From a virus: 64,000 nucleotides of DNA. The translations under genes were made by a program, and so were the position numbers. Under the pieces are notes generated by a model, which searched no databases, had not been told where the DNA came from, and was given only the letters and a program-made list of their open reading frames with translations. Shown in pieces: positions 5,448 to 52,085 of this stretch (its first letter is position 1; each line of letters starts with the position of its first letter). Location: positions 1 through 64,000 of IMG/VR virus record IMGVR_UViG_3300014501_000002. One strand, written 5' to 3'.

Positions 5448-6599
5448 ATGCCGTTAAATCAAACGAAAGCGACTGTGGCTGATTGGGGGCGTCTGCGTCT
5501 TAATCCCACGTCACCTTTGTCCCTGCTCAGCTTGTACAACCCCCTGAAGCTCGACCTGTTGCAAGTGGTCGACGAGGGCGGCGACATGTTGCTCAACGTG
5601 ACCTACAAGGGCGTTGTGCAGCTTCTGCCAAACAACCAGACTCCATCCGGCGGCGGCTCCTCATTTGTTACCGGTAAGTTGGGTTTGGCTGGGAACTATG
5701 AACTGTTAGCTGCGGCCGGAATTTCGAACACCGGTAACACGGTGGTCACCGGCGGAAATGTTGGGTCATTCCCCACTCCGTCGATCACAGGCTTCCCTCC
5801 CGGGATCGTTACACCTCCTTTCACGGTCGACAATACCGACGCTGCCGCGGCTCAGTCTGCTGCCCTTGTCGCGTACAACTATTTCACAGGCTTGACATTC
5901 ACGTCATTGAGTGGTTCTTCGGCCAATCTGAGCGTCCTTGGAAACGGATCGACTGCATCGACTTATCTTCCGGGAAACTATTCGTCTGGTTCTAGCATGG
6001 ATATTCCTACGAGCATTACTTTGGATGCTCAAGGAAATCCAAACGCGATGTTCGTGTTCATGGCCGGATCATCGACGATCACTCTTGAGAGCGGAGCATC
6101 TATCCTACTTGTCAATGGTGCACAAGCAGCCAACGTGGTGTGGTTGCCGGGTAGCTCTTTCACATCAGTTTACAACGGCATTTCTTCAGTCATGCAGGGT
6201 AACATTCTCGCGAACACGAGTATCACGCTCGGTGGCGGCGTACTGAATGGTCGTGCGCTCGCAGGCATCGTTACTTCAAGTGGCGCAATTACTATCGCAG
6301 CGGCTGTACTGGCTACTTCGCCAGGCGGCGGTGGCGGTACACCTGTCACCGGTGGATTCTATTCTAGCCAGTGCTTGTTCGGAAAGTACTACACTCGGGT
6401 TGCTGCTACGACCGTGCCACCTCTGACGGCCGCCGCAATATTCGCGGATGTGTTCAGCCAGAATAACCAGCACTACGATATCTTCGATATCATCGGGCAG
6501 GGAGATTCTCCGATTTATCACTTGGACTACTTGGGCGTCGCATATTATGACTCTCCATCGCTTACGTACCAAACTGCGGAAGGTTCGACAAACGTTTAA
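5448..6599 (+). CDS. Putative virion protein with inserted DUF3494 (IBP-1, ice-binding-like) domain
   Basis: LGLAGNYELLAAAGISNTG...AAAAQSAALVAYNY...PGNY...TLDAQGNPNAMFVF...LVNGAQAANVVW...QGNILANTSITL...LNGRALA; Gly-rich linkers on both sides; no signal peptide. Confidence 0.9.
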   Translation: MPLNQTKATVADWGRLRLNPTSPLSLLSLYNPLKLDLLQVVDEGGDMLLNVTYKGVVQLLPNNQTPSGGGSSFVTGKLGLAGNYELLAAAGISNTGNTVVTGGNVGSFPTPSITGFPPGIVTPPFTVDNTDAAAAQSAALVAYNYFTGLTFTSLSGSSANLSVLGNGSTASTYLPGNYSSGSSMDIPTSITLDAQGNPNAMFVFMAGSSTITLESGASILLVNGAQAANVVWLPGSSFTSVYNGISSVMQGNILANTSITLGGGVLNGRALAGIVTSSGAITIAAAVLATSPGGGGGTPVTGGFYSSQCLFGKYYTRVAATTVPPLTAAAIFADVFSQNNQHYDIFDIIGQGDSPIYHLDYLGVAYYDSPSLTYQTAEGSTNV

Positions 6600-6699: not shown

Positions 6700-7140
6700 A
6701 TGGCATCCGGCAAGGGCAATAACAACAGCATCCTTTACCTCGGGGCGATTTTCCAGGCAGTGTTTACGGGAGTCCCAAGCTTGCTCGCGAATGCGGGTAG
6801 TCCCTTAACCAACCTCTACGTCAGCTTGTACACAGCGAATCCTGGAGCATCGGGGAACCAGACGTCTAACGAAGCTGCATACACGAGCTACGCTCGCGTG
6901 GCGGTTGCTAGAACAGTCAGCGGATGGTCTATCAGTAGTGAGACAATTGCGAACGTGGCTGCGGTCACCTTCCCGGCTTGCACTGGTGGTACAGAAACAG
7001 AAAATTATGTTGGGATCGGTACGCTCGCGACGCTCGCCGGAAACTTGCTTTGGTTCGGACAGCTTACCACCCCTCTCGCTGTCAGCGCTGGAATTACTCC
7101 ATCATTTGCGATCGGTGCTTTAACGATAACGGAGTCGTAA
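6700..7140 (+). CDS. Small virion structural protein (tail/fibre-associated family)
   Basis: LYVSLYTANPG...NEAAYTSYARVAV...NVAAVTFP...GITPSFAIGALTITE is a common phage structural motif. Confidence 0.8.
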   Translation: MASGKGNNNSILYLGAIFQAVFTGVPSLLANAGSPLTNLYVSLYTANPGASGNQTSNEAAYTSYARVAVARTVSGWSISSETIANVAAVTFPACTGGTETENYVGIGTLATLAGNLLWFGQLTTPLAVSAGITPSFAIGALTITES

Positions 7141-17157: not shown

Positions 17158-17160
17158 GAA

Positions 17161-18126
17161 ATGAAAGCTTTGGTAACTGGTTGTACGGGCCAGGACGGAT
17201 CTTATTTAGCGGAACTATTACTAGAAAAGGGTTATGAAGTTCATGGATTGGTGCGGAGACATAGTTCTGTTAGTACGGATCGTATTGATCATATTTTTAG
17301 CAAACTACATCTACATTATGGTGACCTTTCTGATTCCGGATCGCTAAATAAAATACTCCATGAAATACGTCCGGATGAGATTTATTCTCTTGGCGCACAA
17401 TCGCACGTTAGAGTATCGTTTGAGTGCCCAGAATATACGTCTGATGTGGACGCTTTAGGTGTTTTACGTTTGTTAGAAGCGATGCAGTTAAATTGCCCGG
17501 AAGCGAGATTTTATCAAGCATCGTCAAGTGAGATGTTTGGCGCAGCCCCAGCACCACAAACGGAGACCACGCCATTTTATCCGCGAAGCCCATACGGCAT
17601 CGCCAAGCAGTTCGCTTATTGGACCACAGTCAACTACCGTGAGGCATACGGTATGTTCGCGTGTAACGGGATATTATTCAACCACGAGAGTCCGCGCCGC
17701 GGCGAGACGTTTGTTACTCGGAAGATAACCAAAGCCGCCGTACGCATAAAAGCGGGATTGCAGGATAGTTTAGCGCTGGGTAATCTAGACGCTAAGAGAG
17801 ATTGGGGATTCGCCGGGGATTATGTTGAAGCGATGTGGCTCATGATGCAGCAACCGGTGCCCGATGATTTTGTCATAGCGACCGGCGCCACACATTCAGT
17901 TCGAGAATTCCTAGATGAAACATTTGGGTACCTAGGCATGGATTGGAAGCCGTATGTAAAGATCGACCCGAAGTATTTCCGTCCCGCAGAAGTCGATTTA
18001 TTGCAGGGCGATGCTAGCAAGGCGCGGCGTGTTCTAGGCTGGGAGCCGAAAGTAAATTTCAAACAATTGGTTAGGCTGATGGTCGACCATGAGACAGAAG
18101 GCAGTCGTTTGCATCCCCACGTTTAA
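17161..18126 (+). CDS. gmd: GDP-mannose 4,6-dehydratase
   Basis: [66 protein letters not shown]. Confidence 0.98.
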
Positions 18127-22670: not shown

Positions 22671-24703
22671 ATGCCGTTAGAAGGCGAAGAGAAAAAGAAG
22701 TGGCAGGCAGAATACGACGCGCGACGCAGACAACAGCGCGCCGAGAATAACGTTGAGAAGGATGAAATTGAAAAAGCTGCAGAACGCGATAAGGCTACTG
22801 CGCTCCTGGCACCGGATGGAGTCGGGGCAGCGCGTCATCTATCAGAGACGAAGTCGTACAGTGATCTAGCAAAGTGGTACTTTGGCCTCGTGGAAGATTC
22901 CGACGACGAAGACGTTGAAGACAGGAAGAAAAAGAAGAAAAAGAAGAAGGCGCTTAAGCCCGCGACCGCAACGATCTTAGGTGAGAAGCGTACGTTCGAC
23001 GAGTGGCTCGCGCTCCGAGACAAGGCCCGTAAGGATTTGTTCTGGCTCGGAAAAGAAGTCCTGAAAAGAGATTTCACGCCATTTACTCACCAGATTATCT
23101 GCGATCAATTCGTGCAGAAGAATTTTGATGGGGTGTACAAAGAAGGTTACACCCTGAAGGATTTTCACAAAGCAATCGATGCACAGCCGCGAGAGAAGGA
23201 AATGATTCTTCTCGACCCGCGTGGATTCTATAAGTCAACTATAGATGGCGTCGACTCGGTGCAGTGGATTATCAACGCGCCGGACATTCGCATCCTGATC
23301 ATCACGGGAGAGTACAAACTAGCACTTGCGTTCATGTCCGAAATCAAGCGCTATTTTTACTTAGCCGACGGCGGTGAAGCGACCGATTTTCATTACCTGT
23401 TTCCAGATTTTGTCCTGTCCGGTATAGACGGGCGCTCTAAAGAACCTATCCAATGTCCCGCGCGTAAGCACAACCAAGTCGCGCCGACTCTTTGGATCAA
23501 TTCTATCGACGCCAACTTGTCTGGATGGCACTGCGATATTAAAAAGGGTGATGACGTTGTCACCGACGAGAACAGTAAGAACGAAACCGCTCGGAAGAAC
23601 CTGAAAGAAAAGTACGACGGCACCGCGAACCTACTCGATGAGTGGGGATTCTCGGATCATATCGGGACACGTTATTACACCGATGACTGGTACGGCACGA
23701 AGATACTGCCGGTCATGGATGATAATGATGTAGTCCAAGATACGTCTCTGCGGTATCATTGTCGCGCGTGTTGGAACGTGAGACCAGGCTTTGAGCAAGT
23801 GCCACTTCGGCAGTTGACCGAAGACATGGTCATCTTGAATTTCCCGGAGAAGGCGTCGTTTAAATCTCTCCGTAAGAAGTTGCTCGACAACGAGCGCAGC
23901 TTCAGAAACCAGCAGTTGAACGAACCGACTGATGTTCTCGATGAAGCCGCATTCAAGATTACGTTCGAAAAAGAAGTTTTGATTAAGCATTCTTACGCGG
24001 CATCAGCCGCTCCGAAGATAGGAGATATTTACATCGGTTGGGATTGGGCGTATACCGATGGTAAGTACTCAGACATGTCCGCGGGAGCCGCGGGCAGAGT
24101 TTACAAACGGGAAGATGGTGAATGGGGCATCGCGGTCCTGGAAGTTATTTACGGCCGTTGGAAGCCTAGCGAGTTGGCGTTTCACATCGTGCAGTTCAAC
24201 AAGAAGTGGAATCCAAAGAAGACGTTGATTGAAAAGACGATGTGTGCCGACCTCCTCAAGCTTGAGGTTCAGCGTCAAGCAATGAAGTACGGCGTGACGT
24301 TGGATGTATTCTGGAAGCCGGTTGATCTATCCCCGGATGCAAAGCGCAATCGCATTAAAGGTCTCGAAGTATTGTTGACCAACGGCTTGTTGTGGTTTGT
24401 GACCGGCGCATGGCTCGAAGAAACATTCCTTCAATTAGTACGATATACAGGAGAACGAAAAGGTCGTGGACGTAAAGACGATCTCCCCGACGCGATAAGT
24501 TTTTTAGCTGTTTTCTGCCCTCGACCGCACCTAACGCGGATATGGAAGCAATGCTAGAGGCGCAGAATGCAGTAGCGTTGCTGAAGCAGATGCAGAGTCA
24601 TATCTTCGGTTCAGAATCGATTATTCGCGATCCCGAAGCTCCTGTGACACCGGCAAAGATCGACCCGAGGGGTAGGTATAACATCCCCGGTTTGAGGTAT
24701 TAA
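22671..24703 (+). CDS. terL: Terminase large subunit (zero frame stops at 24557; the -1 frame from ~24500 continues to 24703)
   Basis: Walker A PRGFYKST, Walker B KKGDD, IGTRY motif, RNase H-like DWAY...D and DDLPDA; directly upstream of portal. Confidence 0.92.
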
Positions 24704-24705
24704 GA

Positions 24706-26862
24706 ATGAGTAAGCAGCTTAAGAACCCAAACATCGGTGAGGGTCAGGTCAATAGCAAGCTCGAAGAAGCAAAACAGAAACTGGATGCGCTCAGCTTGAC
24801 TCCGGCATCTGAAGTAACCAAAGCGAGCATGACGTACGATGAAGAAACGGGAACTTTCACGTTTGACGATCGTACCGCGCTCAAGTTGATTATCGACGAT
24901 TCGAACACTGTGGACACGTTCATCAATGTGAACCAGTGGGCGAGCGGTTGGACTTTATCCGACATCATTTATCAATCCCCGGCATCCGCTTCGGCGTTTG
25001 ACGGCGGGAACGTGGCACAGGCCAACGTCCCGAAGTTTACGGTTAGTAACCACATCAGTTCGATCGTTCCGAAGATTATGTCGGGAATTTTTTACGAAGA
25101 TCCTCCGTTTTTACTGCGGCCGCTTGCTGGGACAGATCAGGATACCGTCCTTGCGAAGACTGCGTTGTTCTCTCAGCAACTGGTAGAGATGAAGTTTGAA
25201 GAGGAAGTCGAGCGCGGCCTTGATCAGATGGCGCTTTTGGGAACCTGCATTTTCAAGTGGGGATACCTGGAGTACCAAAAGAAAACCAAGACGTATGTTC
25301 AAACCGGCGAGCGTCTCAACCTGAATCTGCCGTCCGGCAATAAGCAATTGGATACCCCGGACTCCGATAATTTTAAAGTCATTCGTAAGGATGAAACTGT
25401 CTCGCATCCTTGGATTCGTTACTGCGATATTCGTACGGTTCTTGTAGACCCGGCTTGCCGTTACGGTGATATCCGGCGCGCGAATTACGTCATTTATCGT
25501 GATTATGCTACGTACACCGATTTAGATCATCTGCGCGGCCAAGAGGGTTACGATATCCCGGCAGAGGCTGTTCTTCAGGCGCTGTTCTTGAGTAATCCTT
25601 CAAGCGGTCCGGATAACATCAGTCTGACTCTTCCAGAAGGTATGCGTGGCTATTTGCAGCACGCCGTACCGCGAAGCTATAAGACGACCGCCGATCCGAC
25701 GCTGCAGTCTATCGAAATTCTCGAGCGTTGGGATAACGAGAAGGTCATCGTGGTGCTGTCATACAACGGCCACAACATCTTGATCCGTAACGAAGCTAAT
25801 CCTTACGGGAAGATTCCGTTCTATAGCGCAAACTGGCGCAACATCCCCGATGCATTTTATGGTCAAGGGCTCGGCCAGTTGGTCGGAAGCGAACAGCTTG
25901 TCGAACAGGGAATCACGAACATCGCGCTCGATCTGTTGGCTTATGGCCTGCAGCCGACGGCTGTTCGTAAAAAGGGTTTCAACACACCTACGCAGAATCA
26001 GCGCTGGAAACAGGGCGGTATTATCGACGTAGATGACGACGTGGAAAGGGCGTTCAAGTTCCTTGAGATGCCTCCGGTTCCTCCTGCCGCATGGCAGTTT
26101 ATATCCCAGGCGCAGTCCGCTTCCGCGGCAACCTCCGGAGCCAACGAGCAAGTTGTGCAGGGCGCGGGTGGTATGGGTAACAAGTCAACTGGTATGCGTT
26201 CAGGTACCGGCGCGGCAGCTGTTGTAGCAGCCAACGCGTCCCGGCTCGATGGGCCAACTGGTCGATTCGTTCGTCAAGTCTTTTTGCCATGGATCACACA
26301 GATGGACGACTTGAACAACGATTTACTCCCGACATCGGTTATGAAATCTGTTCTCGGAGAGAAACTCGGCGAAACATTTCAAATCGATCATTTGAAACTC
26401 CGTAACGCGAAATTTGAATTCGAAGTCCTGGCCGGTACGAAGCTTGGCGCCAAGAAGGAAATGGCGCAGTTCTTGCCGATCATGTTGCAGATATTCAATA
26501 ACCCGACGTTCACGCAAGATTTGGCACAGGCTGGATATATCTTTGATCCAGTCGCGATCTTCAAGTCCTTCGCGGATGCCGCAGGGTGGAAGTTCTCGCA
26601 GAATTTCCTTAAGAAGATGACAGATGAGCAGATGCAGACTGCCAAGGCTAACACCAAGGCAGCGCTCATGCAGATGCAGTTGAACGCGAAACAGCAATCG
26701 CAGACTCAGCAGTTCCAGCATGAAGAGACGTTGGAAGATCAGAAACAGCTTGGCAAGGCAGGCAATGAGGTTCTTCGCCAATCTATTGAACAGGCCACGA
26801 CTCCCGAGGAAGTTCAAGGGGAGCCCGGCGGTGTAGGGTTCGGATCGACAGACGTCATCTAG
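24706..26862 (+). CDS. Portal protein
   Basis: 718 aa after TerL; LLGTCIFKWG, LVDP, NPYGKIPF...FYGQG motifs; Gln-rich C-terminal helix as in podophage portals. Confidence 0.88.
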   Translation: MSKQLKNPNIGEGQVNSKLEEAKQKLDALSLTPASEVTKASMTYDEETGTFTFDDRTALKLIIDDSNTVDTFINVNQWASGWTLSDIIYQSPASASAFDGGNVAQANVPKFTVSNHISSIVPKIMSGIFYEDPPFLLRPLAGTDQDTVLAKTALFSQQLVEMKFEEEVERGLDQMALLGTCIFKWGYLEYQKKTKTYVQTGERLNLNLPSGNKQLDTPDSDNFKVIRKDETVSHPWIRYCDIRTVLVDPACRYGDIRRANYVIYRDYATYTDLDHLRGQEGYDIPAEAVLQALFLSNPSSGPDNISLTLPEGMRGYLQHAVPRSYKTTADPTLQSIEILERWDNEKVIVVLSYNGHNILIRNEANPYGKIPFYSANWRNIPDAFYGQGLGQLVGSEQLVEQGITNIALDLLAYGLQPTAVRKKGFNTPTQNQRWKQGGIIDVDDDVERAFKFLEMPPVPPAAWQFISQAQSASAATSGANEQVVQGAGGMGNKSTGMRSGTGAAAVVAANASRLDGPTGRFVRQVFLPWITQMDDLNNDLLPTSVMKSVLGEKLGETFQIDHLKLRNAKFEFEVLAGTKLGAKKEMAQFLPIMLQIFNNPTFTQDLAQAGYIFDPVAIFKSFADAAGWKFSQNFLKKMTDEQMQTAKANTKAALMQMQLNAKQQSQTQQFQHEETLEDQKQLGKAGNEVLRQSIEQATTPEEVQGEPGGVGFGSTDVI

Positions 26863-38330: not shown

Positions 38331-39050
38331 ATGTACACACTTCAGCAAACGATCAACTGGGCACGGACGTTCATCCAATACTCGCCTTTGACTGCGGGAA
38401 TAGGAAACGAACCCGCGATATCCATTGCGAACATGGTGTTGGATACAGTCACATCCGCGCCGATCACATGGCCGTGGAACCGCGCGGAATATACGGGGTT
38501 GACACTGACCGCCAATATACAGGACTACAACGTAGTTCCGATCACAGATTTCAATTTTCTTGAGGTGGTTAGTTTGAAGACTGTGGACGGTAAGTACTCG
38601 TACGAATTGAAGGATGTGTACAACACGAATATTCTCGGTGTGTCAGTCTCCGCACCGGCGCAACCCAAAGCGGTCGCGGTTAAGTTTTTTACTTATGGGG
38701 TAAGTGTCGCGCTTAGGTTCTTGAGCATTCCGGATCAGAATTACGCCGCGACCATAACGTATCAGAAGGTTATTACACCGTTCACTCTCCTGACGCAAGC
38801 ATGGCCCATTCCGGATCAGTACCTCGATATTTACAACAACCTTTTTCTTGCAGAAGCGTTTCAGTCGGTCGACGATGATCAGCAAGCTGCGCGGTATCGT
38901 ATGCGTGGCATCGCGGCATTGTTGTCGAAGGCGGAAGGCCTCAGCGAAATGCAGCGCAACGCATTCCTTGCTCAGTATCTCGCTCGTGAGAGTCAATCGC
39001 AAACTAATGTATCACGTACGCAACAGGGTCAGCAGGCCCGCGGAGTATAA
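38331..39050 (+). CDS. Head-tail adaptor (tail tubular A-like)
   Basis: TLQ...WPWN...IQDY...PDQNY...Y...IPDQY; precedes the nozzle-like gene. Confidence 0.72.
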   Translation: MYTLQQTINWARTFIQYSPLTAGIGNEPAISIANMVLDTVTSAPITWPWNRAEYTGLTLTANIQDYNVVPITDFNFLEVVSLKTVDGKYSYELKDVYNTNILGVSVSAPAQPKAVAVKFFTYGVSVALRFLSIPDQNYAATITYQKVITPFTLLTQAWPIPDQYLDIYNNLFLAEAFQSVDDDQQAARYRMRGIAALLSKAEGLSEMQRNAFLAQYLARESQSQTNVSRTQQGQQARGV

Positions 39051-42000
39051 TGCCTAATTTACTCGAGCAATCCGGAGCGCAACCACAGAAACAACCGAAG
39101 TTTGCGCCGCTTTTCATTGATAAAGCGTTTACCGGAATTTATACACAGCGCTCGGTGCTGCACGATCCTTCTGATTTAGCTACGTCGAGATTTTATGGCG
39201 GTCGTCCAGATGCTTTATGGCAGGGTTCGAACGTTGAACTAACGAATCGACTCACTTTGCAACGGCGCCCCGGCTTGTCGGAATTCTCTACAGTGACTTA
39301 TCCGACGCCTCCAGATCGCGGCTTCTCGTTCCAACTTCTCGACGGAACCATTCGCGTAATCATTGACACCGAATCCACCGGTGCTTTGAGCGTCACATCG
39401 GTTGCTACTTCTGTCGGCGGTAATGCGGTATATACCGGCACGTTCCCCGGAGGTGTGGGGAACACGTATGTCGGCATGAAGTTCACCGTTTCCGGATTCG
39501 TGGGTGCCGGTTCCGATTCAATATACACCGCCGTAGCTTCAACTGGCACAACCATCACTTTGAACAACCCGCACGCCACCGCGGAGACCGCAGCTGCGAG
39601 TATGGTGTCTTCAGGCGCCGTGTATTGGGATCAGCAGAACGGTTCGAAAACTTTGATATTCGCGAAAGGCACCGGCGCTGGACAGACTTATTTCGTTGCC
39701 GTCGCGGGCATTCTTTACATGGGCGATGGGGTCGAGACTTTTATCTATACGCCACTGAATCCGAACGCAATCGCATACGGATTCGGTTTGGTCGCGCCGG
39801 TCAATGGGCCGACGATTACCACCACAGAGTCAGCTGCTAGTGCGGTCGCATGGCAGGCGCACACATATTTTACCACGATGGGTTTGATCGTCGACTCTAA
39901 CGGAAACATTGAGCAATTATCCGGAGTCAACGCAGACGGAACTAACCCGACACTGCGATTCGGCACGAGTAGCAACGGACAACCTCCATGGAACCAAGCG
40001 ACCGGCGGAACAACTGCGGATGGTTCGGTCACATGGACCAACCAAGGCCCGATCGGCACGTGGGCTCCTAAGACGACATATCAGCCTGGTCAAGCCATCT
40101 ATGATCCGGGAACTAAGTGCGTGTTTATTCAGACGCACAATTTCGCGGCTACTTCTGGACCCTCGGCGCCACAGTGGAACCCAGCCCTTGTATCCACGGG
40201 CGCTCGCACGAGTGAACTGAACGCAGGCGGCGCAACCGCCGCGCGTTGGGGTAGCCTCGGACAATTGAACGTCACACCTACGTTGCTTAGATCGTGGACC
40301 GCCGGAGAGACGTACGGAACGTATGTCGAGCCGAGTACTGGAAACGATCCGAACGTATTGAATTGCGCGACGATTGAGCCCACACTTATTCTTCCTCCAC
40401 TTGCCGGGCAGAATGTTTACCTGCAAGGTGCGACTACCGGCGGCGTGACCGGAACCGGCGCGACTCCTCCTCCGTGGCAAACAGCTATCGGTCAGACGAC
40501 TACAGACGGCCAATTGACCTGGACAATGCTCGGTTCGGCGACATGGACTGCGCTCACTTCTTACACTGCATGGGTTTCTGGAGCAAACACCTTTTCGGTA
40601 ATTGAAGATACGAACGGCAACTTGCAAGTTTGCATGGCGAGTGGGATCAGCGGTCCTACTATCCCTGCAGCGTGGGGAACTACTTATGGTGCAACTACTT
40701 TGGATGGCTCCGGCACTTCTCAGATTACTTGGGTGTGCGTTGGTGCAGCAATTGCATGGGCTGCGAATACGATTTGGTATCTTCCGCTAGCTGGTTTCGT
40801 TCCTCCAAGCAAGAACCAACCTTACGGCAGCGCGTCTGTCATTGATACTCAGGGTGATCTTGAGTATGTGATTTCATCGGGTGAGTCAGGTTCTGTAACT
40901 CCGGCGTGGCAAGCGATCGGTTTCAATACGACTGATAACACGATTACGTGGTACAACTCGGGCGTCGCGCAGACCAACTCACTCGCGTGGACCCAAGGCT
41001 ACTCGTACGCATATTCATACTACAGTCGAACGACCACAGATTTCTACGACACCAATCCTCCTCCGGGACTCAACCTGATATATCCCGCGGGACTCGGCCA
41101 GCCAACTGGCTCCGAGACAGGTGCGATCAGCACTGCGTCACCCGCGACTGTAATCGGCGGCCCAAACACCGGCGCGATTAACACGGTTAGTGGGATCAGT
41201 TCACTTGATCCGGCCGTGGACACAATCATCATCTGGCGCTCGGCGGACGGCGGCGGATCGGACAACATGTTCTTCCTGACCGAGATTCCGAACCCTCTTC
41301 CGAACGGCGGACAACCCGTTGTGTGGCACTTCCAAGATTATCTCCCCGACGTAGCTATAGGAGTATTCCAAGGTTTGAACAACCTCATTCCGGCTCCGAT
41401 TGATGATGAGAATGATCCTCCTCCGAATAATTTCTTGCCGATGACGTATAACTTCCAACGTATTTGGGGAGCGTCCGGTAGCAGTGTGGTGTTCTCAGGC
41501 GGTCCTGATGTCATCACCGGAAACGCGAACTTCGCGTTCAACCCATCCGATACTTTCCCATACCTTGCGGACGTTATACGTATCGTAAAAACGTCTACGG
41601 GGCAGGTTGTGTTCTTGACTGACAGCATTGAGTTCTTGGCCGGGGGTCCGTTAACTGCGTCGTTCTACTCCGTGACACTCGGGCCGGGCATCGGACTTCG
41701 CTCATTCAATGCGCTCGATGTGTACGCAGGAGAAATTTATTTCGTATCATCTGACGGGCAATTCCGCGTAATCAATCCGTCTCTTAACATTTCTAACGCA
41801 GGATTCCCGATCGGAGATCAACTTGCCGTATTGAATACATCGAAAATTTATGTCGCGGTTCAACAGGCCGGTGTAGACAACGCAATTTACGTCGCGGATG
41901 GAAGTACTGGGTGGTGGCGTTGTAATCCACACCAAGTTCCCGGAAGCGCAAATGGTCCGGAGCCTATTTGGAGTCCGTTCGCGAATATCACCAACGGATG

Positions 42001-43114
42001 TCAGATGGTGCAGAGCATCGAAATTACTCCGGGCATCAAGAAGCTTCTCGTGGGTGGCGTCGGTGATAACGAGAATATATTATTCCGCGATTTGACTGTG
42101 TACACGGATGGGGTGGTAGTGTTAAACCCGTCGCCGATTAACTTGCTAACAACTTCTACATACGGTGTCCTGGCAGGTAGCACAATCACTAATTCCGGGA
42201 CAACTACCATCAATGGAGACTTAGGGTTGAGCCCGGGAAGCGCTGTCACGGGTGCTCCAGTAGTTACGGGCGCGACGAACATCGATAACCCAGCAGCGGT
42301 TCAGGCTCAGACGGATTTGGTCACGGCATACAATCAAGCCGCGGCTTTCCCAGGGGCTGTTACGATACCGACAGAATTAGGTGGGACGACTCTTCCACCC
42401 GGAGTTTATTCAAGTCTGTCTGGAACGTTCAGTATCACGACGGGGACGTTAACTCTCGATGCTGCAGGTAATCCAAACGCGTTCTGGATTTTTAAAACTG
42501 CGACTACGTTGGTGTTGGGCACGGGTACTTCGGTATCTTTGATAAATAAAGCGCAATCCCTTAACGTGTTCTGGCAAGTTGGTAGTTCCGCTACGATCGG
42601 GGTAGGCGCCGTGTTCCAAGGAACCATCCTTGCACTTACGTCTATTTCTGTAAATACCGGAGCGATACTGACTGGAAGATTGTTGGCTCAAACCGGTGCA
42701 GTGACATTGCTGGGTAACACTATCACCACGCCTAGCTCAACTGTTACCGGGCAGTACGACGCCTACTTTGTCATGGGTAGCATTATGCTCGCGCACCCAG
42801 GACAGATAGCCGTGCTCGGATTTATCGAAGGCGATTTCTCCGGAGTTGCGTATCAACCTCAAGTTGGTTTCTTACTGAACGAGATAGCGGGTTCGTTCGT
42901 GAACATGCCGCTTAAGCCTCAGTTCGATCCTCCGACAATTTACGGAGATACGATTGCGCCGACGTCATATTCTCCTAATCGGTATTATTTCGCTGCAACG
43001 GGTACACTCGCGCGCTGTCGTCACCTTCAGATTAAGGTCGATTTCGGAATTACCCCGAACGGTGACGAGCTTTATAACCTCACCATCTTTGGGCGGGTCT
43101 TCGTGGAAAATTAG
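39050..43114 (+). CDS. Tail nozzle/stabilisation-like protein with Trp-rich repeats and an inserted DUF3494 ice-binding-like domain (~42135-42735)
   Basis: NV....LTLQRRPG N-terminus and RCRHLQIKVDF C-terminus fit P22 gp10/T7 gp12-like nozzles. Clear IBP-1 motifs: YGVLAGSTITNSG, AVQAQTDLVTAYN, LPPGVY, TLDAAGNPNAFWIF, NVFWQVGSSAT, GRLLAQTGAVTL. Confidence 0.85.
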   Translation: MPNLLEQSGAQPQKQPKFAPLFIDKAFTGIYTQRSVLHDPSDLATSRFYGGRPDALWQGSNVELTNRLTLQRRPGLSEFSTVTYPTPPDRGFSFQLLDGTIRVIIDTESTGALSVTSVATSVGGNAVYTGTFPGGVGNTYVGMKFTVSGFVGAGSDSIYTAVASTGTTITLNNPHATAETAAASMVSSGAVYWDQQNGSKTLIFAKGTGAGQTYFVAVAGILYMGDGVETFIYTPLNPNAIAYGFGLVAPVNGPTITTTESAASAVAWQAHTYFTTMGLIVDSNGNIEQLSGVNADGTNPTLRFGTSSNGQPPWNQATGGTTADGSVTWTNQGPIGTWAPKTTYQPGQAIYDPGTKCVFIQTHNFAATSGPSAPQWNPALVSTGARTSELNAGGATAARWGSLGQLNVTPTLLRSWTAGETYGTYVEPSTGNDPNVLNCATIEPTLILPPLAGQNVYLQGATTGGVTGTGATPPPWQTAIGQTTTDGQLTWTMLGSATWTALTSYTAWVSGANTFSVIEDTNGNLQVCMASGISGPTIPAAWGTTYGATTLDGSGTSQITWVCVGAAIAWAANTIWYLPLAGFVPPSKNQPYGSASVIDTQGDLEYVISSGESGSVTPAWQAIGFNTTDNTITWYNSGVAQTNSLAWTQGYSYAYSYYSRTTTDFYDTNPPPGLNLIYPAGLGQPTGSETGAISTASPATVIGGPNTGAINTVSGISSLDPAVDTIIIWRSADGGGSDNMFFLTEIPNPLPNGGQPVVWHFQDYLPDVAIGVFQGLNNLIPAPIDDENDPPPNNFLPMTYNFQRIWGASGSSVVFSGGPDVITGNANFAFNPSDTFPYLADVIRIVKTSTGQVVFLTDSIEFLAGGPLTASFYSVTLGPGIGLRSFNALDVYAGEIYFVSSDGQFRVINPSLNISNAGFPIGDQLAVLNTSKIYVAVQQAGVDNAIYVADGSTGWWRCNPHQVPGSANGPEPIWSPFANITNGCQMVQSIEITPGIKKLLVGGVGDNENILFRDLTVYTDGVVVLNPSPINLLTTSTYGVLAGSTITNSGTTTINGDLGLSPGSAVTGAPVVTGATNIDNPAAVQAQTDLVTAYNQAAAFPGAVTIPTELGGTTLPPGVYSSLSGTFSITTGTLTLDAAGNPNAFWIFKTATTLVLGTGTSVSLINKAQSLNVFWQVGSSATIGVGAVFQGTILALTSISVNTGAILTGRLLAQTGAVTLLGNTITTPSSTVTGQYDAYFVMGSIMLAHPGQIAVLGFIEGDFSGVAYQPQVGFLLNEIAGSFVNMPLKPQFDPPTIYGDTIAPTSYSPNRYYFAATGTLARCRHLQIKVDFGITPNGDELYNLTIFGRVFVEN

Positions 43115-43117
43115 TCC

Positions 43118-45151
43118 ATGGCTAAAAAGAAAAGTGCGCCAAAATTCGAGTCCGCGCCGCAACAAACCGTCGCGCAAGAAGCTGGGCTGCCCGGTAATTT
43201 TCATCCGATAGATGTTCCGCCGATTATTCCCGGTCAACCTACCGGTGGGGCACCTCCTACGCCTGCAACCATGCAGCCGTATTTCAGTGGATCAATTCCC
43301 CCGGCATTCATGTTGCAGCCGGACCAGATTAATACACAGTACGGCGGCGGTAGCACTCCGTCCGCGCGACTCATGCCGGTTGGTGCGGGAGGGAATCCGC
43401 AGATCGTCGCCGCGGCACAATCAGTCGCAACGCAGATCGTCGGTTCGAGTGTTGGGCTGCAGATGCCTATCCAATACAACGTCACAACGAGCGCAGGTTT
43501 CTCGATTGTCACGTGGAAACCCGAGCCCGCAGGCTATGCACTCATGGGACCGCCGATCTTGATACCGGAGGCATTCGTTTCAAACGATCAAATACCACTC
43601 GCAAGTCAAACAGGCGCTGTCGTAACCCTGAATCCGGTCACGGCCGCAAGTCCCATTTCTATCGGTGATTTTGGATTTTTAACTTGTTACCTAAGCGGTG
43701 GCGCTATAGTTGTGTCAGTCGTGGATAATTTAGGGCAAACGTGGTTGCCTCTTTTCCCAGTCCAAACTCCCCCTGGCTCTAGCGGAACCATTTCTTTCCA
43801 AGTTTTTTATTTTCCTTTTACCAATGCGGTAGCTATCGGCGGCACGTTTACTATAACGGTCACGATGAGCGATACCTTCTCGCAGTTATTCGACGCCGAA
43901 TTTGTCAGCGTCAACGGACTTCTTGCCGTTGATCAGGTTGTGCAAGCAACCGGCTCCGCAGGAAATCCTACAGCGGGCTCCGTGACAATCACTCAAGGAG
44001 AGTGGGTGACGAGTTGGGTATGGGATAACAACGGCGCCGGAAGCGAACCACTTGTGGTTCCGCCGGGCTGGGCCGCAATCACTCCATTGGACCTCACGGT
44101 CAATGCACCGACTTCATTTGGTGGCGCGGGTATTATCGAGCCAGCTGGGACGTACACGGATGCGTGGAGCGGAATTCCAAGCCCTAATGTTTTCGGTTGG
44201 ACTGCAAGTATCGTAACGTTTGTGACAACCGGAAGTGCTGGCGGGCCGTCATCTGGAATTCCCACCTTTCGAGCCATAGAACCGTCTGATCTTCCTGGCA
44301 CGTCGGTCAATTTCGTGGTTAATAATTCGAATTCATTCATCACGGGTTCGATCGCAAATCATACGTTAACGTTGGCCTACGGCGGCACTCCGCTCCTCGT
44401 GACTCAGGGCGGCACCGGTGCAGATTTGTCCGCAACTGGTGGTGCGGGCGAAGTCGTGCAACAAACTTCACCAGGCGCGCCGTTCACAGTCGCGACACTT
44501 GCATTAAGCAGTCTCACGGGCATCCTAGCTTTGAACCAAGGCGGAACCGGATCAGACTTATCCGGAACCGGTGGCACGAATAAAGTGCTGCAGCAAAGCA
44601 CACTCGGTGGTGTGGTCACCGTCGCGCAATTAACTGTGTCACAAATCTCGGGTGCTGCGCCTCTCGCGTCCCCTACGTTCACGGGTACGGTGACGGCACC
44701 AACCCTTGCTTTAACAGGAAAAATTTCTAAGTATGATAACGTAGCTACGGTTCGAGGTGGTATCCCAGCCATCTTAGCGTCTTCTTTGCTTACAGCCCAA
44801 GCAGCGGCTATTACCGCTACGACGATTTACGCAGTTCCGGCCGCGGGAGTTGGCCTGTACCGCATCTCGTACGTCGCTACTATAACGACCGCGGGAACGA
44901 CTTCCGTTTTAGGTGGAGCGACCGGCTTTCAAGTTATATACACGAACGGTAATGGCGACACGGTGGTTAAGACAAGCAATCCCACGACACCAAACGTGTC
45001 ATCGGGTAACACAACGGGGACACAAATCTCCGGTGTGGTTCTTGCTTACGCCAAAGCTTCAACGAACTTGCAGTACGCTTTCGGTTACACGCCGGGCAGC
45101 CCAACAGCGGGCGCGTACGATTTAGCAGTTTACGTAGAATGGCTTGGGTGA
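43118..45151 (+). CDS. Tail fibre protein
   Basis: PTFRAI..SDLP, QGGTG repeats, GAAPLASPTFTG. Confidence 0.82.
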   Translation: MAKKKSAPKFESAPQQTVAQEAGLPGNFHPIDVPPIIPGQPTGGAPPTPATMQPYFSGSIPPAFMLQPDQINTQYGGGSTPSARLMPVGAGGNPQIVAAAQSVATQIVGSSVGLQMPIQYNVTTSAGFSIVTWKPEPAGYALMGPPILIPEAFVSNDQIPLASQTGAVVTLNPVTAASPISIGDFGFLTCYLSGGAIVVSVVDNLGQTWLPLFPVQTPPGSSGTISFQVFYFPFTNAVAIGGTFTITVTMSDTFSQLFDAEFVSVNGLLAVDQVVQATGSAGNPTAGSVTITQGEWVTSWVWDNNGAGSEPLVVPPGWAAITPLDLTVNAPTSFGGAGIIEPAGTYTDAWSGIPSPNVFGWTASIVTFVTTGSAGGPSSGIPTFRAIEPSDLPGTSVNFVVNNSNSFITGSIANHTLTLAYGGTPLLVTQGGTGADLSATGGAGEVVQQTSPGAPFTVATLALSSLTGILALNQGGTGSDLSGTGGTNKVLQQSTLGGVVTVAQLTVSQISGAAPLASPTFTGTVTAPTLALTGKISKYDNVATVRGGIPAILASSLLTAQAAAITATTIYAVPAAGVGLYRISYVATITTAGTTSVLGGATGFQVIYTNGNGDTVVKTSNPTTPNVSSGNTTGTQISGVVLAYAKASTNLQYAFGYTPGSPTAGAYDLAVYVEWLG

Positions 45152-45164
45152 TAAAATAGGACTT

Positions 45165-45740
45165 ATGACTTTTTACGCTTACCTTTATTTACGACAAAAC
45201 GGGACGCCCTATTATGTGGGTAAAGGCCGCGGTCGTCGCGCTTATAATTCATACATAGGTCATCGTCCGCCCAAAAACCGTTCTCGTATCGTCATCATGA
45301 ATCGTAGTAATGAGGCAGAGGCGTTCGTCACGGAAATAGAGTTGATTCGCAACTGGGGTAGAAAGGATTTGGGCACAGGTATTCTTTATAATCGCACGGA
45401 CGGAGGAGACGGCGCATCTGGATTCATTTCCTCTGAGGAACGAAATCAGAAAATACGAGAGTCAAAGCAAGGAAAGAATCGTCCGACATTTTCTAAAGAA
45501 TGGCGTGAAAATCTTTCCAAAGCCGCGATGGGTAATCAGCACCTTCTCGGGAAAACATGGGCGCTGTCAGCAGAAGCCCGTCGTCATCATAGCGAAGCCC
45601 TAAAAGGGAAACTAAAGACCGGAGCCGCTCTTATTGCCGCTCAGGCGAATGGGAAACTTGGCGGTGGGCATGCCCGCTGGCATTCAAGTAAGGGGATAGT
45701 AAATCCCAATTGTGAACTCTGCATGAAAGACCAAGGATAG
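45165..45740 (+). CDS. GIY-YIG homing endonuclease
   Basis: FYAYLY...PYYVGKG...GRKDLGTGILYNRTDGG; paralog of 13194-13724. Confidence 0.88.
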   Translation: MTFYAYLYLRQNGTPYYVGKGRGRRAYNSYIGHRPPKNRSRIVIMNRSNEAEAFVTEIELIRNWGRKDLGTGILYNRTDGGDGASGFISSEERNQKIRESKQGKNRPTFSKEWRENLSKAAMGNQHLLGKTWALSAEARRHHSEALKGKLKTGAALIAAQANGKLGGGHARWHSSKGIVNPNCELCMKDQG

Positions 45741-47429: not shown

Positions 47430-49688
47430 ATGGCATTAGTTCTTACCCCTGAACAACAGGCTAACCAGCAGCAGATGACGGCGGCAAATCAAGGTTCTGC
47501 ACCCGGCGCGGGCACGTTGGCCGGACCGGGAGGCACACCTCCAGCTGCGGCCGCTCCAGATACTGCGGCTCCCGATGCAGGACAAGGCGCCCTCGGTGCT
47601 CCGGATTCAACTCAGGAGCCCGTCAACGCGTCCAATCCAAAGTCGTTGTTCGCGCAGAAATTAGGCCGCGCTCTAGATAAACCAGAGAACTCAATTCCGC
47701 TGCAGGCGAATGGTAAGCCTCAGCCCGGCGGATGGGCGAAGTCGTTGCTCGGCGCCGCGCAAGGTGTGTTGTCCGGTCTCGGTGATGCTCCGCAAGGAAA
47801 GGCCCCAGTCGGCGGCGGAATCCTGAGTGGAATCACGGGCACGATTGCGAATCGCAATCAGCGTCTTGCTGCGCAGAAAGAGCAAGCTCAAAAGGCCCAG
47901 CACGAAAATGCCGAAGATCAACGCGCACAGGAAAAACAAGATGATGCGCATCAGAAGGCACAGCTGGATAATACCGAAGCGAATCTGCGCATGATCCACA
48001 CGCAGAATTTGAACCATCAAATCGGCGTCGTCGATCCAATGATTGCCGATGGAAACAAGACGCTCAAAATGTTGGAAGATCCCGATAGCGGACATCCTAC
48101 GCCGGTTCTCGCACGAGATGTCACGTACGCCGACCTACAGAAGGGTGTTGTCGACGGTAAGTGGAACCTGCATGATATGACGCCGTTCCCATCTGGTAAG
48201 AAGGCAATCGGCACGGACGCGAACGGTGAGCCGCAGTACGCGACTACGTACACGCTTGTGGATGCGCACGGTAAGGTCACGCCGAACGAAGATGAGATCA
48301 AGTACCTAAACGCCAATAAAGCGACCGACCAGCCCATTAAGCCGGGTCAGGAATTCGATTTCAGTTCATGGAATTCTCTGCATCAGAAGGCCGATGATAT
48401 CAAGGCTCAGACAGATGCGCGAAACAAGACGTTGATCAATAACAAATTGTCCGATGCGGACGATGCTTATAAATTAGAGAAGGTCGACTTTCCTCCGGTA
48501 TGGTCGAAGGCGCTGTCCGATCCTCGCGCGAAAGGCAAGGATGGTTTGCCTGATCCGATTAAAGCACGTAACCTGATCCTAAGCGACCCGGCATCGTTGA
48601 AGCAATTCCCGGACGTTGCAAAGCTTGTTCCCGAAGCTTACCCTGGATTCGACAAACTCGAGTCTCAGGCTCAGGAAGCAGGATTTAAGGCTACGGAAGA
48701 TGCTGCGAAGAAAGCGGCAGACAAGGCCGATGACATTCGTAATCTCATGACAGATGATATGAAAGCGAGTATTGCACAGCTTTCTCCGGATCGACAGAAG
48801 TTCCTTGGTCAGTATAACCCGGAAGAACAAGGCGCGATCGTATCTCTCGGCACGAGCCCCGGCGATGTAAACTTCCGCGATGTGTTCACACGTATGGCGA
48901 AGGGCCAGAAAGGTCTCACGCCACAAGACGCGGAAAACGCCATCAAGCAAGTTTACCCGCACTGGAGCATGGCTGCGTACGCGAACACTCAAAAGATGTA
49001 CAAGGACATCACGGGTGGCGGTCCGTTGTCCAAGCAGATCGCACAGTACAACAACGTTCTACAGCACGCATCCATCGCGCAAGATGCAATCACCGAAGCG
49101 ACCGGTCGCGCAAACAACCCGCGGTTCGTGAACACCGCTTTGAACCAACTCGAGAAACAGGGTTGGGGAGCCGAAGCCGGTAAATTGAATATCGCGCTCG
49201 GTACGGTCAAGGATGAATATGCGTTGTTGCAGTCCGGCGGATACAAACCGTCTGAACAAGAACAAGCAACTCTCGACGCAGCACTAAAGCCTACCGCTAC
49301 TGCTGGACAGATTTCCGGTGCATTGAAAGCCTTAGCCGACGTCGGAGCCGTTCGATTGAACCAGATCAACGATCAGTACAAGCGTAGCTCTGGTCGCAAC
49401 GTTCCCGGAATGTTGAATCAGGATTCGGTGGACGCCGCAAACCACCTCAACGTCAACCCGGCTACGAGAAAGGTTCTCGGACGCATGAACGTCGCGGGCG
49501 ATTTGTTCGGAAACGACGATGGACATCTAGCGTCGCAGGATTTAGAGCAGAAGAATACGCAGGCGCCTAATGCCGCAGCCGCCCCGACACAACCAGTTGC
49601 GGGAATTCCTCACAATGTCATTATCAACGGAAAGGTTGCAGGAGTCACGACAGATGGTGGTAAGACTTACAAGCCGGTCGCGCAATAA
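47430..49688 (+). CDS. Internal virion/ejection protein
   Basis: 752 aa, helical, in the ejection-gene position. Confidence 0.7.
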   Translation: MALVLTPEQQANQQQMTAANQGSAPGAGTLAGPGGTPPAAAAPDTAAPDAGQGALGAPDSTQEPVNASNPKSLFAQKLGRALDKPENSIPLQANGKPQPGGWAKSLLGAAQGVLSGLGDAPQGKAPVGGGILSGITGTIANRNQRLAAQKEQAQKAQHENAEDQRAQEKQDDAHQKAQLDNTEANLRMIHTQNLNHQIGVVDPMIADGNKTLKMLEDPDSGHPTPVLARDVTYADLQKGVVDGKWNLHDMTPFPSGKKAIGTDANGEPQYATTYTLVDAHGKVTPNEDEIKYLNANKATDQPIKPGQEFDFSSWNSLHQKADDIKAQTDARNKTLINNKLSDADDAYKLEKVDFPPVWSKALSDPRAKGKDGLPDPIKARNLILSDPASLKQFPDVAKLVPEAYPGFDKLESQAQEAGFKATEDAAKKAADKADDIRNLMTDDMKASIAQLSPDRQKFLGQYNPEEQGAIVSLGTSPGDVNFRDVFTRMAKGQKGLTPQDAENAIKQVYPHWSMAAYANTQKMYKDITGGGPLSKQIAQYNNVLQHASIAQDAITEATGRANNPRFVNTALNQLEKQGWGAEAGKLNIALGTVKDEYALLQSGGYKPSEQEQATLDAALKPTATAGQISGALKALADVGAVRLNQINDQYKRSSGRNVPGMLNQDSVDAANHLNVNPATRKVLGRMNVAGDLFGNDDGHLASQDLEQKNTQAPNAAAAPTQPVAGIPHNVIINGKVAGVTTDGGKTYKPVAQ

Positions 49689-49694
49689 TAGGAA

Positions 49695-51425
49695 ATGATT
49701 ATGGCAGACACCAACAATATCCCCGTCCCCACCGGTGCAACATTTGCGCCGGTAGAATCAGAAGCTGTTCCCGTTCCCCAAGGTGCGACATTTTCGCCGG
49801 TCACGCCTGTGTCCGATGTAAATCCCGGCACGATGTCTGCGCCTCCGAAGACAACCCCGGGCGGTCTTTTAGATACGGCGGCTCAGGCAGTAATCGATCC
49901 CATCGGCTCGGTGAGCAAAGCTTTGGATCATGTGACGTCGTCCATCGAGAATTATACGCAACAGGGACGTGCAGAACATCCGATCCTGTCCCGCATCGGT
50001 GACGCTACACGCGAAGCTAAAGAGTTGTTGACCGGCGGACAGTCGGCAGGTAAACCTCTCGGTACGTCAAGCGGCGTGACCAATAATCCCGTGACTATCG
50101 CGATGTCGACGGCTCCAGGTGCGGCTGAACTAGGCGCCGAGGCAGAACAAAGATTGACGCAAGGTTTGGAAGCGATTAAGTCAGCGCGGGTCGCGCGCAC
50201 TGCAACCGCGGCACAGGAAGCGGCTGCGAAGGTTGCAACCGTGAAACCCGTGGACCCGGCTCAGTTTGTGTATCGCGAGCCTTCCCCGGTGCCCCAACAC
50301 GGCGCGCCGGTACAGGTCGACAGCCCATTGGATAATGCAACGATCAATAAACTCCCCGGTGGAAAAGATTTGAGCGCGAATGCCATCGAGACTCTCAAAC
50401 AGCATGTCGGCGGCACACCTGGCGCGGAGATTGAGGCTGGAAGCAGCCCGAAGAACACGCTCATGAAGGCCGTCGAGCCTGTCCAGCAGACCATCAAAGA
50501 TACGGGTATCAAGATGAATGACCTGATACAGAATTCACCTCCGTTTCGATCCACCGTGAAGGACGACGGCACGTTGGTTGATGTGATGGACGAACTGAAG
50601 AACAACATACCCGCGAGCGATCGCGCGAAGCTGAGTCTAGATGTGGACGATGAATTGAAGAATGCAAACGACGCGATGATTTCGTTCGATCCGAACGAAG
50701 TGCTCGCGTATCGTCGGAAGCTCGGCAGTCAGATCGATTGGAACGATATCCCGCGCAACCCGCAGACTCCGGGAGAAGTGCAGAATGTCGCGAAGGTAAA
50801 AATTTACAAGGCATTGGGCGATAAGATTCACACCGAAGTCCCAGGCGCCGCGGAACTGGATAAAGTCTTCCAGCCGAACCTGGAATTGCAATCGCACCTC
50901 GACGCGAAGCTTGGACGCACAGTTAGTCGCGACCCAGTGGAAGCGAACGCACAACAGCGGTCCGAATTGCTCAAGGGCAAGGCGCAGCTGGAGAACAAGG
51001 CGCACAATGATATCGTTGCGAAGAACCGCGACCTCGCCGGGCTGTCAGAGAGCGACATAAAGCCGACCATCACCGGGGCGAATGTTCCTAAGACTCCGGT
51101 AGACGTGGCAGTCGACAAGGCTCTGGACCAGTTTAATGTACCCGTCACAGAGAAGCCCGCGTTGCGAGACATCCTTGATGTAAAGGCCGGGACTTATTAC
51201 GGCACGAACACCGATTGGGTAAACGCGAGAAATACTTTCGATAAACTGTCCCCGGCTGAGCGTGCGGCCCGATTCTCTAACCCCGAAGAGGTGCGATCGG
51301 TGCTACAGAAACAAGCTAAAAGGCAAGCTGTTAAGGCGATCCTTAAATATGGTAGTATCGGAGCGGCAGCCATCGGCACGGGTATCGACAGGTACATTCT
51401 GCACGCAGCGGCGACGGGAGAATAA
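49695..51425 (+). CDS. Internal virion/ejection protein
   Basis: PxGATF.PV N-terminal repeats; Ala-rich helices. Confidence 0.7.
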   Translation: MIMADTNNIPVPTGATFAPVESEAVPVPQGATFSPVTPVSDVNPGTMSAPPKTTPGGLLDTAAQAVIDPIGSVSKALDHVTSSIENYTQQGRAEHPILSRIGDATREAKELLTGGQSAGKPLGTSSGVTNNPVTIAMSTAPGAAELGAEAEQRLTQGLEAIKSARVARTATAAQEAAAKVATVKPVDPAQFVYREPSPVPQHGAPVQVDSPLDNATINKLPGGKDLSANAIETLKQHVGGTPGAEIEAGSSPKNTLMKAVEPVQQTIKDTGIKMNDLIQNSPPFRSTVKDDGTLVDVMDELKNNIPASDRAKLSLDVDDELKNANDAMISFDPNEVLAYRRKLGSQIDWNDIPRNPQTPGEVQNVAKVKIYKALGDKIHTEVPGAAELDKVFQPNLELQSHLDAKLGRTVSRDPVEANAQQRSELLKGKAQLENKAHNDIVAKNRDLAGLSESDIKPTITGANVPKTPVDVAVDKALDQFNVPVTEKPALRDILDVKAGTYYGTNTDWVNARNTFDKLSPAERAARFSNPEEVRSVLQKQAKRQAVKAILKYGSIGAAAIGTGIDRYILHAAATGE

Positions 51426-52085
51426 ATGTCATCCACGAATGTTATGCCTAAGAATGCCGATCCGATCGGGGACGTGGCTAAGGCGCTCGATAGCGTCGTA
51501 GGCGAAATCACTCAGTATCCCGAACAAGACGTCAAGCAGCATCCTATCCTGATCCACATCGCGAACACGTTGCGCGCGGCAACCGATATGCTGCGTAAGG
51601 AAACCGGCGCGGAGGGAACAAACCTCACGCAGAATCAAGTTTCGCCGGGCACGGACGAACAGGCGGCCAAGGGCGTTCAGAATTTGCCGGAGTTTGCGGC
51701 GGCGCACGGCGGCGACGAAGACCTCGCCGGTCTGTCCAAGGCCACGAAGCTTGTGGCGCTCGCGAAGAAATATCCGCAAGTCGCGGAGACGTTGAATATG
51801 GCGAAGGATCATCCGCTGCTCTCGAAGATCATCACCACGCCTCCGAAGCCGGAGCCTGCAGCGAAGTCTCCCGCAGCGAAACCGGCTGCGAAGAAAGATA
51901 AGACTGCGGCGAAGCCATCCGCTCCGGAAGCTAAGAACGAAGAGCAGCCCGAAGCCCCGCCTCCAGTCGAGGCAGGATTCGTGCGCGTGCAGGATAGTCG
52001 CGGCGGAATCCACGACATCCCCGAGCAGGCGATCGCTGCGGCGCAACAGCGCGATCCAGGTCTCAAGATCATGGGCGGTAAATAA
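51426..52085 (+). CDS. Putative internal virion protein
   Basis: C-terminal VRVQDSRGGIHDIP...AAQQRDPG motif; Pro/Ala/Lys linker. Confidence 0.65.
   Translation: MSSTNVMPKNADPIGDVAKALDSVVGEITQYPEQDVKQHPILIHIANTLRAATDMLRKETGAEGTNLTQNQVSPGTDEQAAKGVQNLPEFAAAHGGDEDLAGLSKATKLVALAKKYPQVAETLNMAKDHPLLSKIITTPPKPEPAAKSPAAKPAAKKDKTAAKPSAPEAKNEEQPEAPPPVEAGFVRVQDSRGGIHDIPEQAIAAAQQRDPGLKIMGGK

Follow-up and report, generated by a model that had tools for sequence, protein, structure and literature searches.

A DUF3494 ice-binding-fold domain inserted in a predicted podophage tail nozzle and recruited repeatedly in related phages

The tail nozzle-like gene of IMG/VR virus record IMGVR_UViG_3300014501_000002 carries, inserted in-frame near its 3' end, a complete domain of the ice-binding fold DUF3494 (IBP-1). 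The stretch of DNA analysed, referred to here as the window, comprises the first 64 kb of the 111,514-bp record; the whole genome was also searched in six frames. Stated most safely, the insert can be read as a virion-surface adhesion cassette that has the ice-binding fold, is swappable and under selection, and has been recruited repeatedly to host-facing parts of phage tails. Our leading candidate for its target, held tentatively, is the envelope, slime or exopolysaccharide of the host. The gene and its relevant parts are as follows.

39050..43114, + strand: predicted tail nozzle gene, 1354 amino acids (aa; protein P0001), of the T7 gp12 / P22 gp10 class, with additional beta-rich domains that make it larger (open reading frame, homologues and structure match).
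42113..42748, + strand: DUF3494 / IBP-1 beta-solenoid cassette, inserted at aa 1022-1233 and flanked on either side by linkers rich in Pro, Ser and Thr (PF11999, alignment and model).
42749..43111, + strand: C-terminal nozzle domain, aa 1234-1354, which resumes past the insert (invariant Y1236, D1237 and A1238, with others, in all homologues).

The Pfam family PF11999 (Ice_binding, DUF3494) matched aa 1040-1226 of P0001 with an E-value of 1.8e-55 and a score of 188.3 bits (cut-off 28.7), and the match was complete, covering model positions 1-208 of 208. The six-frame search placed the core of this domain at nucleotides 42167-42727 (194 bits). When homologues were aligned, proteins lacking the insert ran from '...FTDN' to 'G..YDA', between which P0001 has approximately 212 extra residues (aa 1022-1233). 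The insert enters at the loop that joins the final strand of the propeller ('ILFRDLTVYTD') to the strand with which the C-terminal domain opens. Residues 1027-1231 aligned in sequence with 25 distinct solved ice-binding sequences, of which EfcIBP was the best match (6EIO, E 2e-41), followed by IBPv (5UYT) and AnpIBP (7BWX). A preliminary description of the window, made from the letters alone, had placed a complete IBP-1-type domain at 42135-42735; these positions correspond to aa 1029-1229 and agree with the aligned span. The four Thr/Ser-rich rows that it quoted are all present in the translation, as are the 125 aa that it counted past the domain.

An AlphaFold2 model of P0001 aa 640-1354 had an overall predicted local distance difference test score (pLDDT) of 77.9, with values of 56-83 within the insert that are low because few of the aligned sequences carry it. 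Compared with the 25 solved IBP-1 structures using VIA, the insert model gave Z scores of 19-22 and root-mean-square deviations (rmsd) of 2.7-3.4 over 185-199 residues; the match to 6EIO had a Z of 21.9 and an rmsd of 3.0 over 197 residues, with 40% identity. The model consists of a strand stack with a helix (aa 1081-1098) alongside the solenoid, in keeping with the right-handed, triangular beta-solenoid and its single long accompanying alpha-helix that mark IBP-1. The E-value and the fold match together exclude a chance match, and the insert is confirmed as a complete DUF3494 / IBP-1 domain that interrupts the nozzle protein cleanly. Lying at aa 1022-1233 of 1354, the domain is internal, and the N-terminus of the protein is the conserved one of nozzles, so that there is no signal peptide route to exposure; the domain would reach the surface through virion assembly instead of secretion.

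The identity of the carrier protein was assessed with its homologues, of which more than 280 were found in metagenomes, most of them 1130-1320 aa long and without PF11999. A PHROGs search of P0001 gave no match, and PF11999, confined to the insert, was the sole family in a Pfam search. An insert-less homologue, P0006 (1144 aa), was folded from a 79-sequence alignment (pLDDT 86.7; predicted template-modelling score 0.71), and the first 21 PDB matches returned by Foldseek for this model were all podophage tail nozzles. Structural alignment with VIA matched residues 17..1144 of the model to residues 2..513 of the Pa223 nozzle (Z 26.3, rmsd 3.0, 443 of 512 residues), and the model also aligned with P22 gp10 (residues 2..472; Z 24, 424 of 471 residues) and T7 gp12 (residues 3..791; Z 19.5-19.8). 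Further matches were obtained to Sf6 gp8, GP4, SU10 and the phicrAss001 muzzle. Generic beta-propellers cover just some 280 residues of the model, whereas the nozzle fold runs over the whole chain, with a beta-propeller body and nozzle-specific parts at both the N- and C-termini. For the window's own C-terminal model, nozzle alignments cross the insert on both sides and reach the C-terminus (P22 gp10 against model residues 146..710: Z 13.2, 301 residues). The gene itself sits in a tail module, with terminase, portal and tail-fibre-like genes upstream on the same strand. Because the model of the insert-less homologue aligns end to end with solved nozzles at Z scores of 19.5-26.3, P0001 is, on this modelling, a podophage tail nozzle, and its earlier description as 'tail nozzle-like' stands (end-to-end structural match, Z 20-26).

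The matched nozzle assemblies are named as C6 in their entries. By homology, six DUF3494 copies would therefore be expected per tail, and the multi-copy display on the tail proposed in the preliminary description would likewise follow from the hexameric state of nozzles. The insert probably points outward, since neither the channel nor a subunit interface has room for a domain of 212 residues.

Selection on the insert was estimated by comparing P0001 with its nearest relative, L187, which is of the same length and aligns with no gaps. Within the insert dN was 0.032 and dS 0.59, giving a dN/dS of 0.055, as compared to 0.075 for the rest of the gene; GC content was 0.509 in the insert and 0.533 in the rest of the gene. 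The low dN/dS and a GC content near that of the rest of the gene argue that the insert is constrained and is no fresh capture. It is under purifying selection and has been resident for a long time. Recent capture from Actinomycetota was considered and rejected, given the phage-like GC content and the clustering of nozzle copies with other viral copies.

The insert is not peculiar to this genome. Four DUF3494 carriers (P0001, P0002, P0007 and P0010) were present among the 120 best nozzle clusters. In a tree of these 120 proteins, built without the insert, each carrier had an insert-less sister with strong support (81% identity between P0002 and P0006, 82% between P0010 and P0067), so that four changes are forced. 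Across the nozzle homologues, DUF3494 was found at four different loops.

Loop 1, past 'RRPG' (about aa 77): L189, L197 and L198.
Loop 2, between 'DGS' and 'TGWW' (about aa 952): L213.
Loop 3, ahead of 'ILxRxLxVxTD' (about aa 1008): P0007, P0010 and L014 (Gly5 linkers).
Loop 4, past 'TD(G)' (aa 1021): P0001 and P0002.

In a tree of the domains themselves, copies at the two C-terminal sites formed one mostly viral clade, while those at aa 77 and aa 952 grouped with a second DUF3494 domain of the window in another clade, which is viral-only. The starred branches of this tree force at least three origins, and the inserted domains stem from two or more viral DUF3494 lineages. The C-terminal hot spot of the nozzle also receives unrelated inserts: P0044 has one of about 210 aa at the very site used in the window, and in P0118 an insert of about 290 aa lies some 8 residues short of the C-terminus. 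A Pfam search of these two inserts found no family. Nozzle homologues differ, too, in the number of copies, from one to three, of a small domain of roughly 90 aa.

Beyond the nozzle family, a scan of IMG/VR found at least 114 stretches that encode DUF3494, in proteins of 227 to 2730 aa; the scan used two patterns, and this number is a lower bound. In L050 (927-8666) the domain lies within a 2580-aa Baseplate_J-like (baseplate wedge) protein, and L027 (2745-9608) and L048 (3198-8099) have two or three copies in otherwise unannotated proteins of 1634 and 2288 aa. Several contigs have two separate DUF3494 loci. Among the 15 nozzle-family genomes rated at least 90% complete, seven contain PF11999. 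A tblastn search of the domain against 50,697 GenBank phage records gave no match, and BFVD held one free-standing DUF3494 protein of a giant virus only. The nozzle and the DUF3494 fold are each known; among the papers that could be searched, we found none describing their combination, nor any describing DUF3494 within a virion protein.

The genome itself encodes DUF3494 a second time, next to a gene of virion type.

5448..6599, + strand: second DUF3494 protein, 383 aa (P0256), with the domain at aa 87-275 (nucleotides 5706-6275) between Gly-rich linkers (PF11999 E 3.1e-33, six-frame search).
6700..7140, + strand: small virion fibre/head-type protein whose gene adjoins that of P0256 (PF23140 'Podophage GP4 fiber I protein gp80', E 1.1e-21; phrog_240 'head protein').

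The domain of P0256 is 39% identical to the nozzle copy, and all eight homologues of the C-terminal part of this protein carry PF11999. A related complete genome (G001) has the same pair, that is, a nozzle copy and a protein of 394 aa. No similarity was detected between P0256 and its gp80-like neighbour. The viral-only clade of the P0256 domain is the one that also holds the nozzle inserts at aa 77 and aa 952 in other phages.

The use of four loops, the second copy, the baseplate fusion and the at least 114 copies in viral-only clades indicate that DUF3494 is an established virion-surface module in soil phages and not a stray host gene. These observations also bear on whether the solenoid has an external ligand at all. 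It could brace or shield the nozzle structurally or be a tolerated passenger, as most members of the nozzle family do without an insert and nozzle loops tolerate several unrelated ones. We regard this as improbable, because the insert is held as tightly as the core (dN/dS 0.055), independent insertion has recurred at four sites, the viral-only clades are long-lived and the second copy of the genome is conserved in relatives.

For the preferred assignment, a host-surface target, we propose the following. The DUF3494 solenoid, held on short Pro/Ser/Thr linkers in the loop between the last propeller strand and the C-terminal domain, would project in six copies from the rim of the short tail, with further copies added by the second virion-type protein (5448-6599). 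The cassette would act as a low-affinity, multivalent adhesin whose flat, Thr/Ser-studded B face holds the particle on a repetitive surface. If one surface is to be named, our best guess is the host envelope or exopolysaccharide, and contact with it may be a reversible first step, after which the fibres would engage. We rank the host surface first because gain, loss and site-hopping, together with alternative cassettes at one site, form the pattern of a host-interaction module, and because the family is broad outside cold habitats. The Baseplate_J-like carrier, also at the host-contacting end of the tail, speaks for a host-directed adhesin as well.

Several points weigh against a host-surface target. 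We know of no DUF3494 domain with a glycan or cell-surface ligand. Identity of the insert to ice-active EfcIBP amounts to 40-44%, and the equivalents of AnpIBP S153 and T156 are kept. The outward orientation and copy number would follow from homology and not from a model of the oligomer. Lastly, the second DUF3494 gene adjoins a gene of head/fibre type, which would fit decoration of the whole particle over receptor contact.

Ice is the next candidate. A true ice adhesin would bind ice through the B face of the six nozzle copies and of the copies on the second protein, and virions might thereby be kept at the ice/liquid-vein boundaries of frozen soil where hosts concentrate, or the tail be protected through freeze-thaw. 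This possibility, in our estimate somewhat unlikely, follows the host surface in rank because ice is the only proven ligand of the fold and the sequence lies near those of active proteins. To our knowledge, every DUF3494 protein that has been tested binds ice. The best matches of the insert are ice-active capless proteins, namely EfcIBP (6EIO; E 2e-41, Z 21.9) and AnpIBP (7BWX; Z 20.9), and the insert falls in the capless subgroup with these two and Nostoc IBP, all of them ice-active. Six tethered copies cannot alter bulk ice growth, so adhesion is the only plausible role in relation to ice.

The B-face positions of P0001 were mapped by alignment to the published rows of AnpIBP, in which the substitutions S153Y and T156Y cut activity to 17%. 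Of the 24 outward positions, 21 are Ala, Gly, Ser or Thr and 16 are Ser or Thr, with no charged or aromatic residue; 'SSATIG' of P0001 aligns with 'SSATLG' of AnpIBP, which keeps the S153 and T156 equivalents. Such a face would suit ice, but the same positions score alike in cellular relatives, with Thr/Ser at 62% as compared to 65% in nozzle copies, and its make-up is similar in the relatives from Streptomyces hygroscopicus, from Actinoallomurus and from the cold-named Arthrobacter frigidicola. The B face is thus a trait of the family and not a marker of ice binding. Its composition failed as a discriminator, phage copies having the same values as relatives in mesophilic genera. Ice activity cannot be predicted from sequence and fold.

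The closest cellular relatives point away from ice more generally. At 51-61% identity, with at least 599 species matches, they are overwhelmingly soil Actinomycetota of mesophilic genera, including Streptomyces, Kitasatospora and Actinoallomurus, and few have cold-habitat names. DUF3494 is also found in the tropics and in hot springs, and it has been suggested that the family may bind various repetitive substrates (Raymond 2021, PMC7783341). The view of DUF3494 as a cold-habitat trait, taken in the preliminary description, is therefore not sustained. The patchy occurrence of the cassette among close phage relatives and the presence of non-IBP cassettes at the same site argue further against ice. 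On the other side, DUF3494 has been reported to be 10-100 times commoner in polar metagenomes, and Arctic tundra soil is the source of the nearest cultured phage, whose relatives come from Stordalen palsa.

Ig-like domains or an LPXTG anchor are frequent in the cellular relatives; this is an architecture of adhesins and speaks for the adhesin reading. As many cellular DUF3494 proteins are surface-anchored, and as the ice-binding faces of AnpIBP, being hydrophobic, pack face to face in crystals, the phage solenoid could conceivably pair face to face with DUF3494 proteins on the host surface. Such homotypic contact is pure inference, Acidobacteriota are absent from the 80 closest cellular copies, and we consider it very improbable.

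The origin of the samples was also considered. Habitats given in Table S4 of the Tunturi paper are Stordalen palsa for data set 3300028798, Colorado soil for 3300044837 and a Puerto Rico tropical soil enrichment for 3300047160; a further, very large one, 3300050821, is also of soil. All data sets with a traced habitat are soils, the window's own data set not being among them. As the traceable contigs come from soil, the cassette might instead adhere to a repetitive surface that is abiotic, for example soil particles of mineral or organic nature, and retain virions in the soil matrix. This has no experimental precedent and leaves the placement on host-contacting tail parts unexplained, and we give it little credence.

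The record from which the window is taken has direct terminal repeats and is rated 100% complete; GC content of the window is 0.513. Genes upstream of the nozzle gene that help to place the genome are the following.

22671..24557, + strand: large terminase (phrog_38, E 6e-39).
24706..26862, + strand: portal protein (phrog_1216, E 4e-22).
34105..35475, + strand: tail-fibre-like protein in the tail module, upstream of the nozzle gene (PHROG tail-fibre families, E down to 4.5e-15).

The terminase marks the genome as that of a tailed phage. Its closest cultured match is in Tunturiibacter phage Tunturi_3 (26% identical, E 8e-36), and this Acidobacteriota phage is, as judged by terminase, the nearest cultured phage and a distant relative of the approximately 111-kb podovirus studied here. 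Tunturi_3 is a podovirus of 97.6 kb from Finnish tundra soil, and its host is the acidobacterium Tunturiibacter psychrotolerans. Its gp19 (PP885686.1, 15001-18411) is the only cultured-phage homologue of the carrier protein, with 34% identity over 68% of the protein; it sits among tail genes and, unlike P0001, is without a DUF3494 insert. The annotation of gp19 as 'head decoration protein' is an automatic Phold/Foldseek transfer that is contradicted by the nozzle match; we rejected it and consider it probably wrong.

Other features of the window were noted in passing. Four open reading frames of homing-endonuclease type (HNH, GIY-YIG-like) lie within the structural gene block, at 28889-29347, 29827-30483, 31242-31877 and 45144-45740. 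Upstream of the terminase, 11620-18126 encodes sugar-nucleotide enzymes, namely two proteins of epimerase/dehydratase type and a DegT-type aminotransferase, which belong to a larger island of glycan genes. Downstream of the nozzle gene are four large open reading frames of 576-752 aa (43118-45151, 47430-49688, 49695-51425 and 52085-54148), for which Pfam and PHROG searches gave no match and which presumably encode further tail or ejection proteins.

The wider pattern of a recurrent cassette matters more than the single gene. If the cassette binds host slime or the cell surface, this would be the first non-ice ligand for the large DUF3494 family in non-cold bacteria. If the ligand is ice, this would be the first known case of a virus particle with an affinity for ice of its own, with a bearing on the persistence of viruses in frozen soils. 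Soil phages would then actively partition to ice/liquid-vein boundaries and could outlast freeze-thaw or reach hosts during it, and a cassette exchanged among phages would be a virus-borne trait of cold adaptation. Either outcome, ice or host surface, is directly testable with one recombinant domain.

PF11999 has also been reported on viral contigs of Arctic surface-water viruses, among auxiliary metabolic genes (Rahlff et al. 2024, PMC11515562). Those genes were read as free-standing and as serving host cryoprotection, whereas the domain described here belongs to structural proteins of the virion. In place of the free-standing, recently host-derived gene by which viral auxiliary metabolic genes are recognized, we found an in-frame fusion in a structural protein, with phage GC content and membership of viral-only clades.

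Among solved nozzles, the carrier matches those of Pa223 (9NWI), P22 gp10 (8EAP), T7 gp12 (7BOY), GP4 (8JOV) and the phicrAss001 muzzle (7QOK) from N- to C-terminus over 422-558 residues. None of the matched entries is described with an ice-binding domain. P0001 exceeds P22 gp10 two- to threefold in length and differs from the solved nozzles by approximately 600 extra residues of Trp-rich beta domains in addition to the DUF3494 cassette.

The insert itself is most like the capless, single-domain proteins EfcIBP (6EIO) and AnpIBP (7BWX/7BWY), with which it shares fold and subgroup and aligns over the full length at 40-44% identity (Z 21.9 and 20.9), the B-face rows and S153/T156 equivalents being kept. 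EfcIBP and AnpIBP are secreted, free-standing Antarctic proteins with measured ice activity, whereas the phage domain is internal to a predicted virion protein of 1354 aa. A parallel in architecture is SfIBP_1 of Shewanella frigidimarina (6BG8; Z 19.8), a proposed ice adhesin in which DUF3494 is likewise carried on a larger, surface-anchored scaffold and would serve for adhesion, not as a soluble antifreeze. In SfIBP_1 that scaffold belongs to the bacterial cell surface and consists of tandem beta-sandwich domains with DUF3494 at one end, whereas in P0001 the domain is inserted in a loop of what is predicted to be a virion machine.

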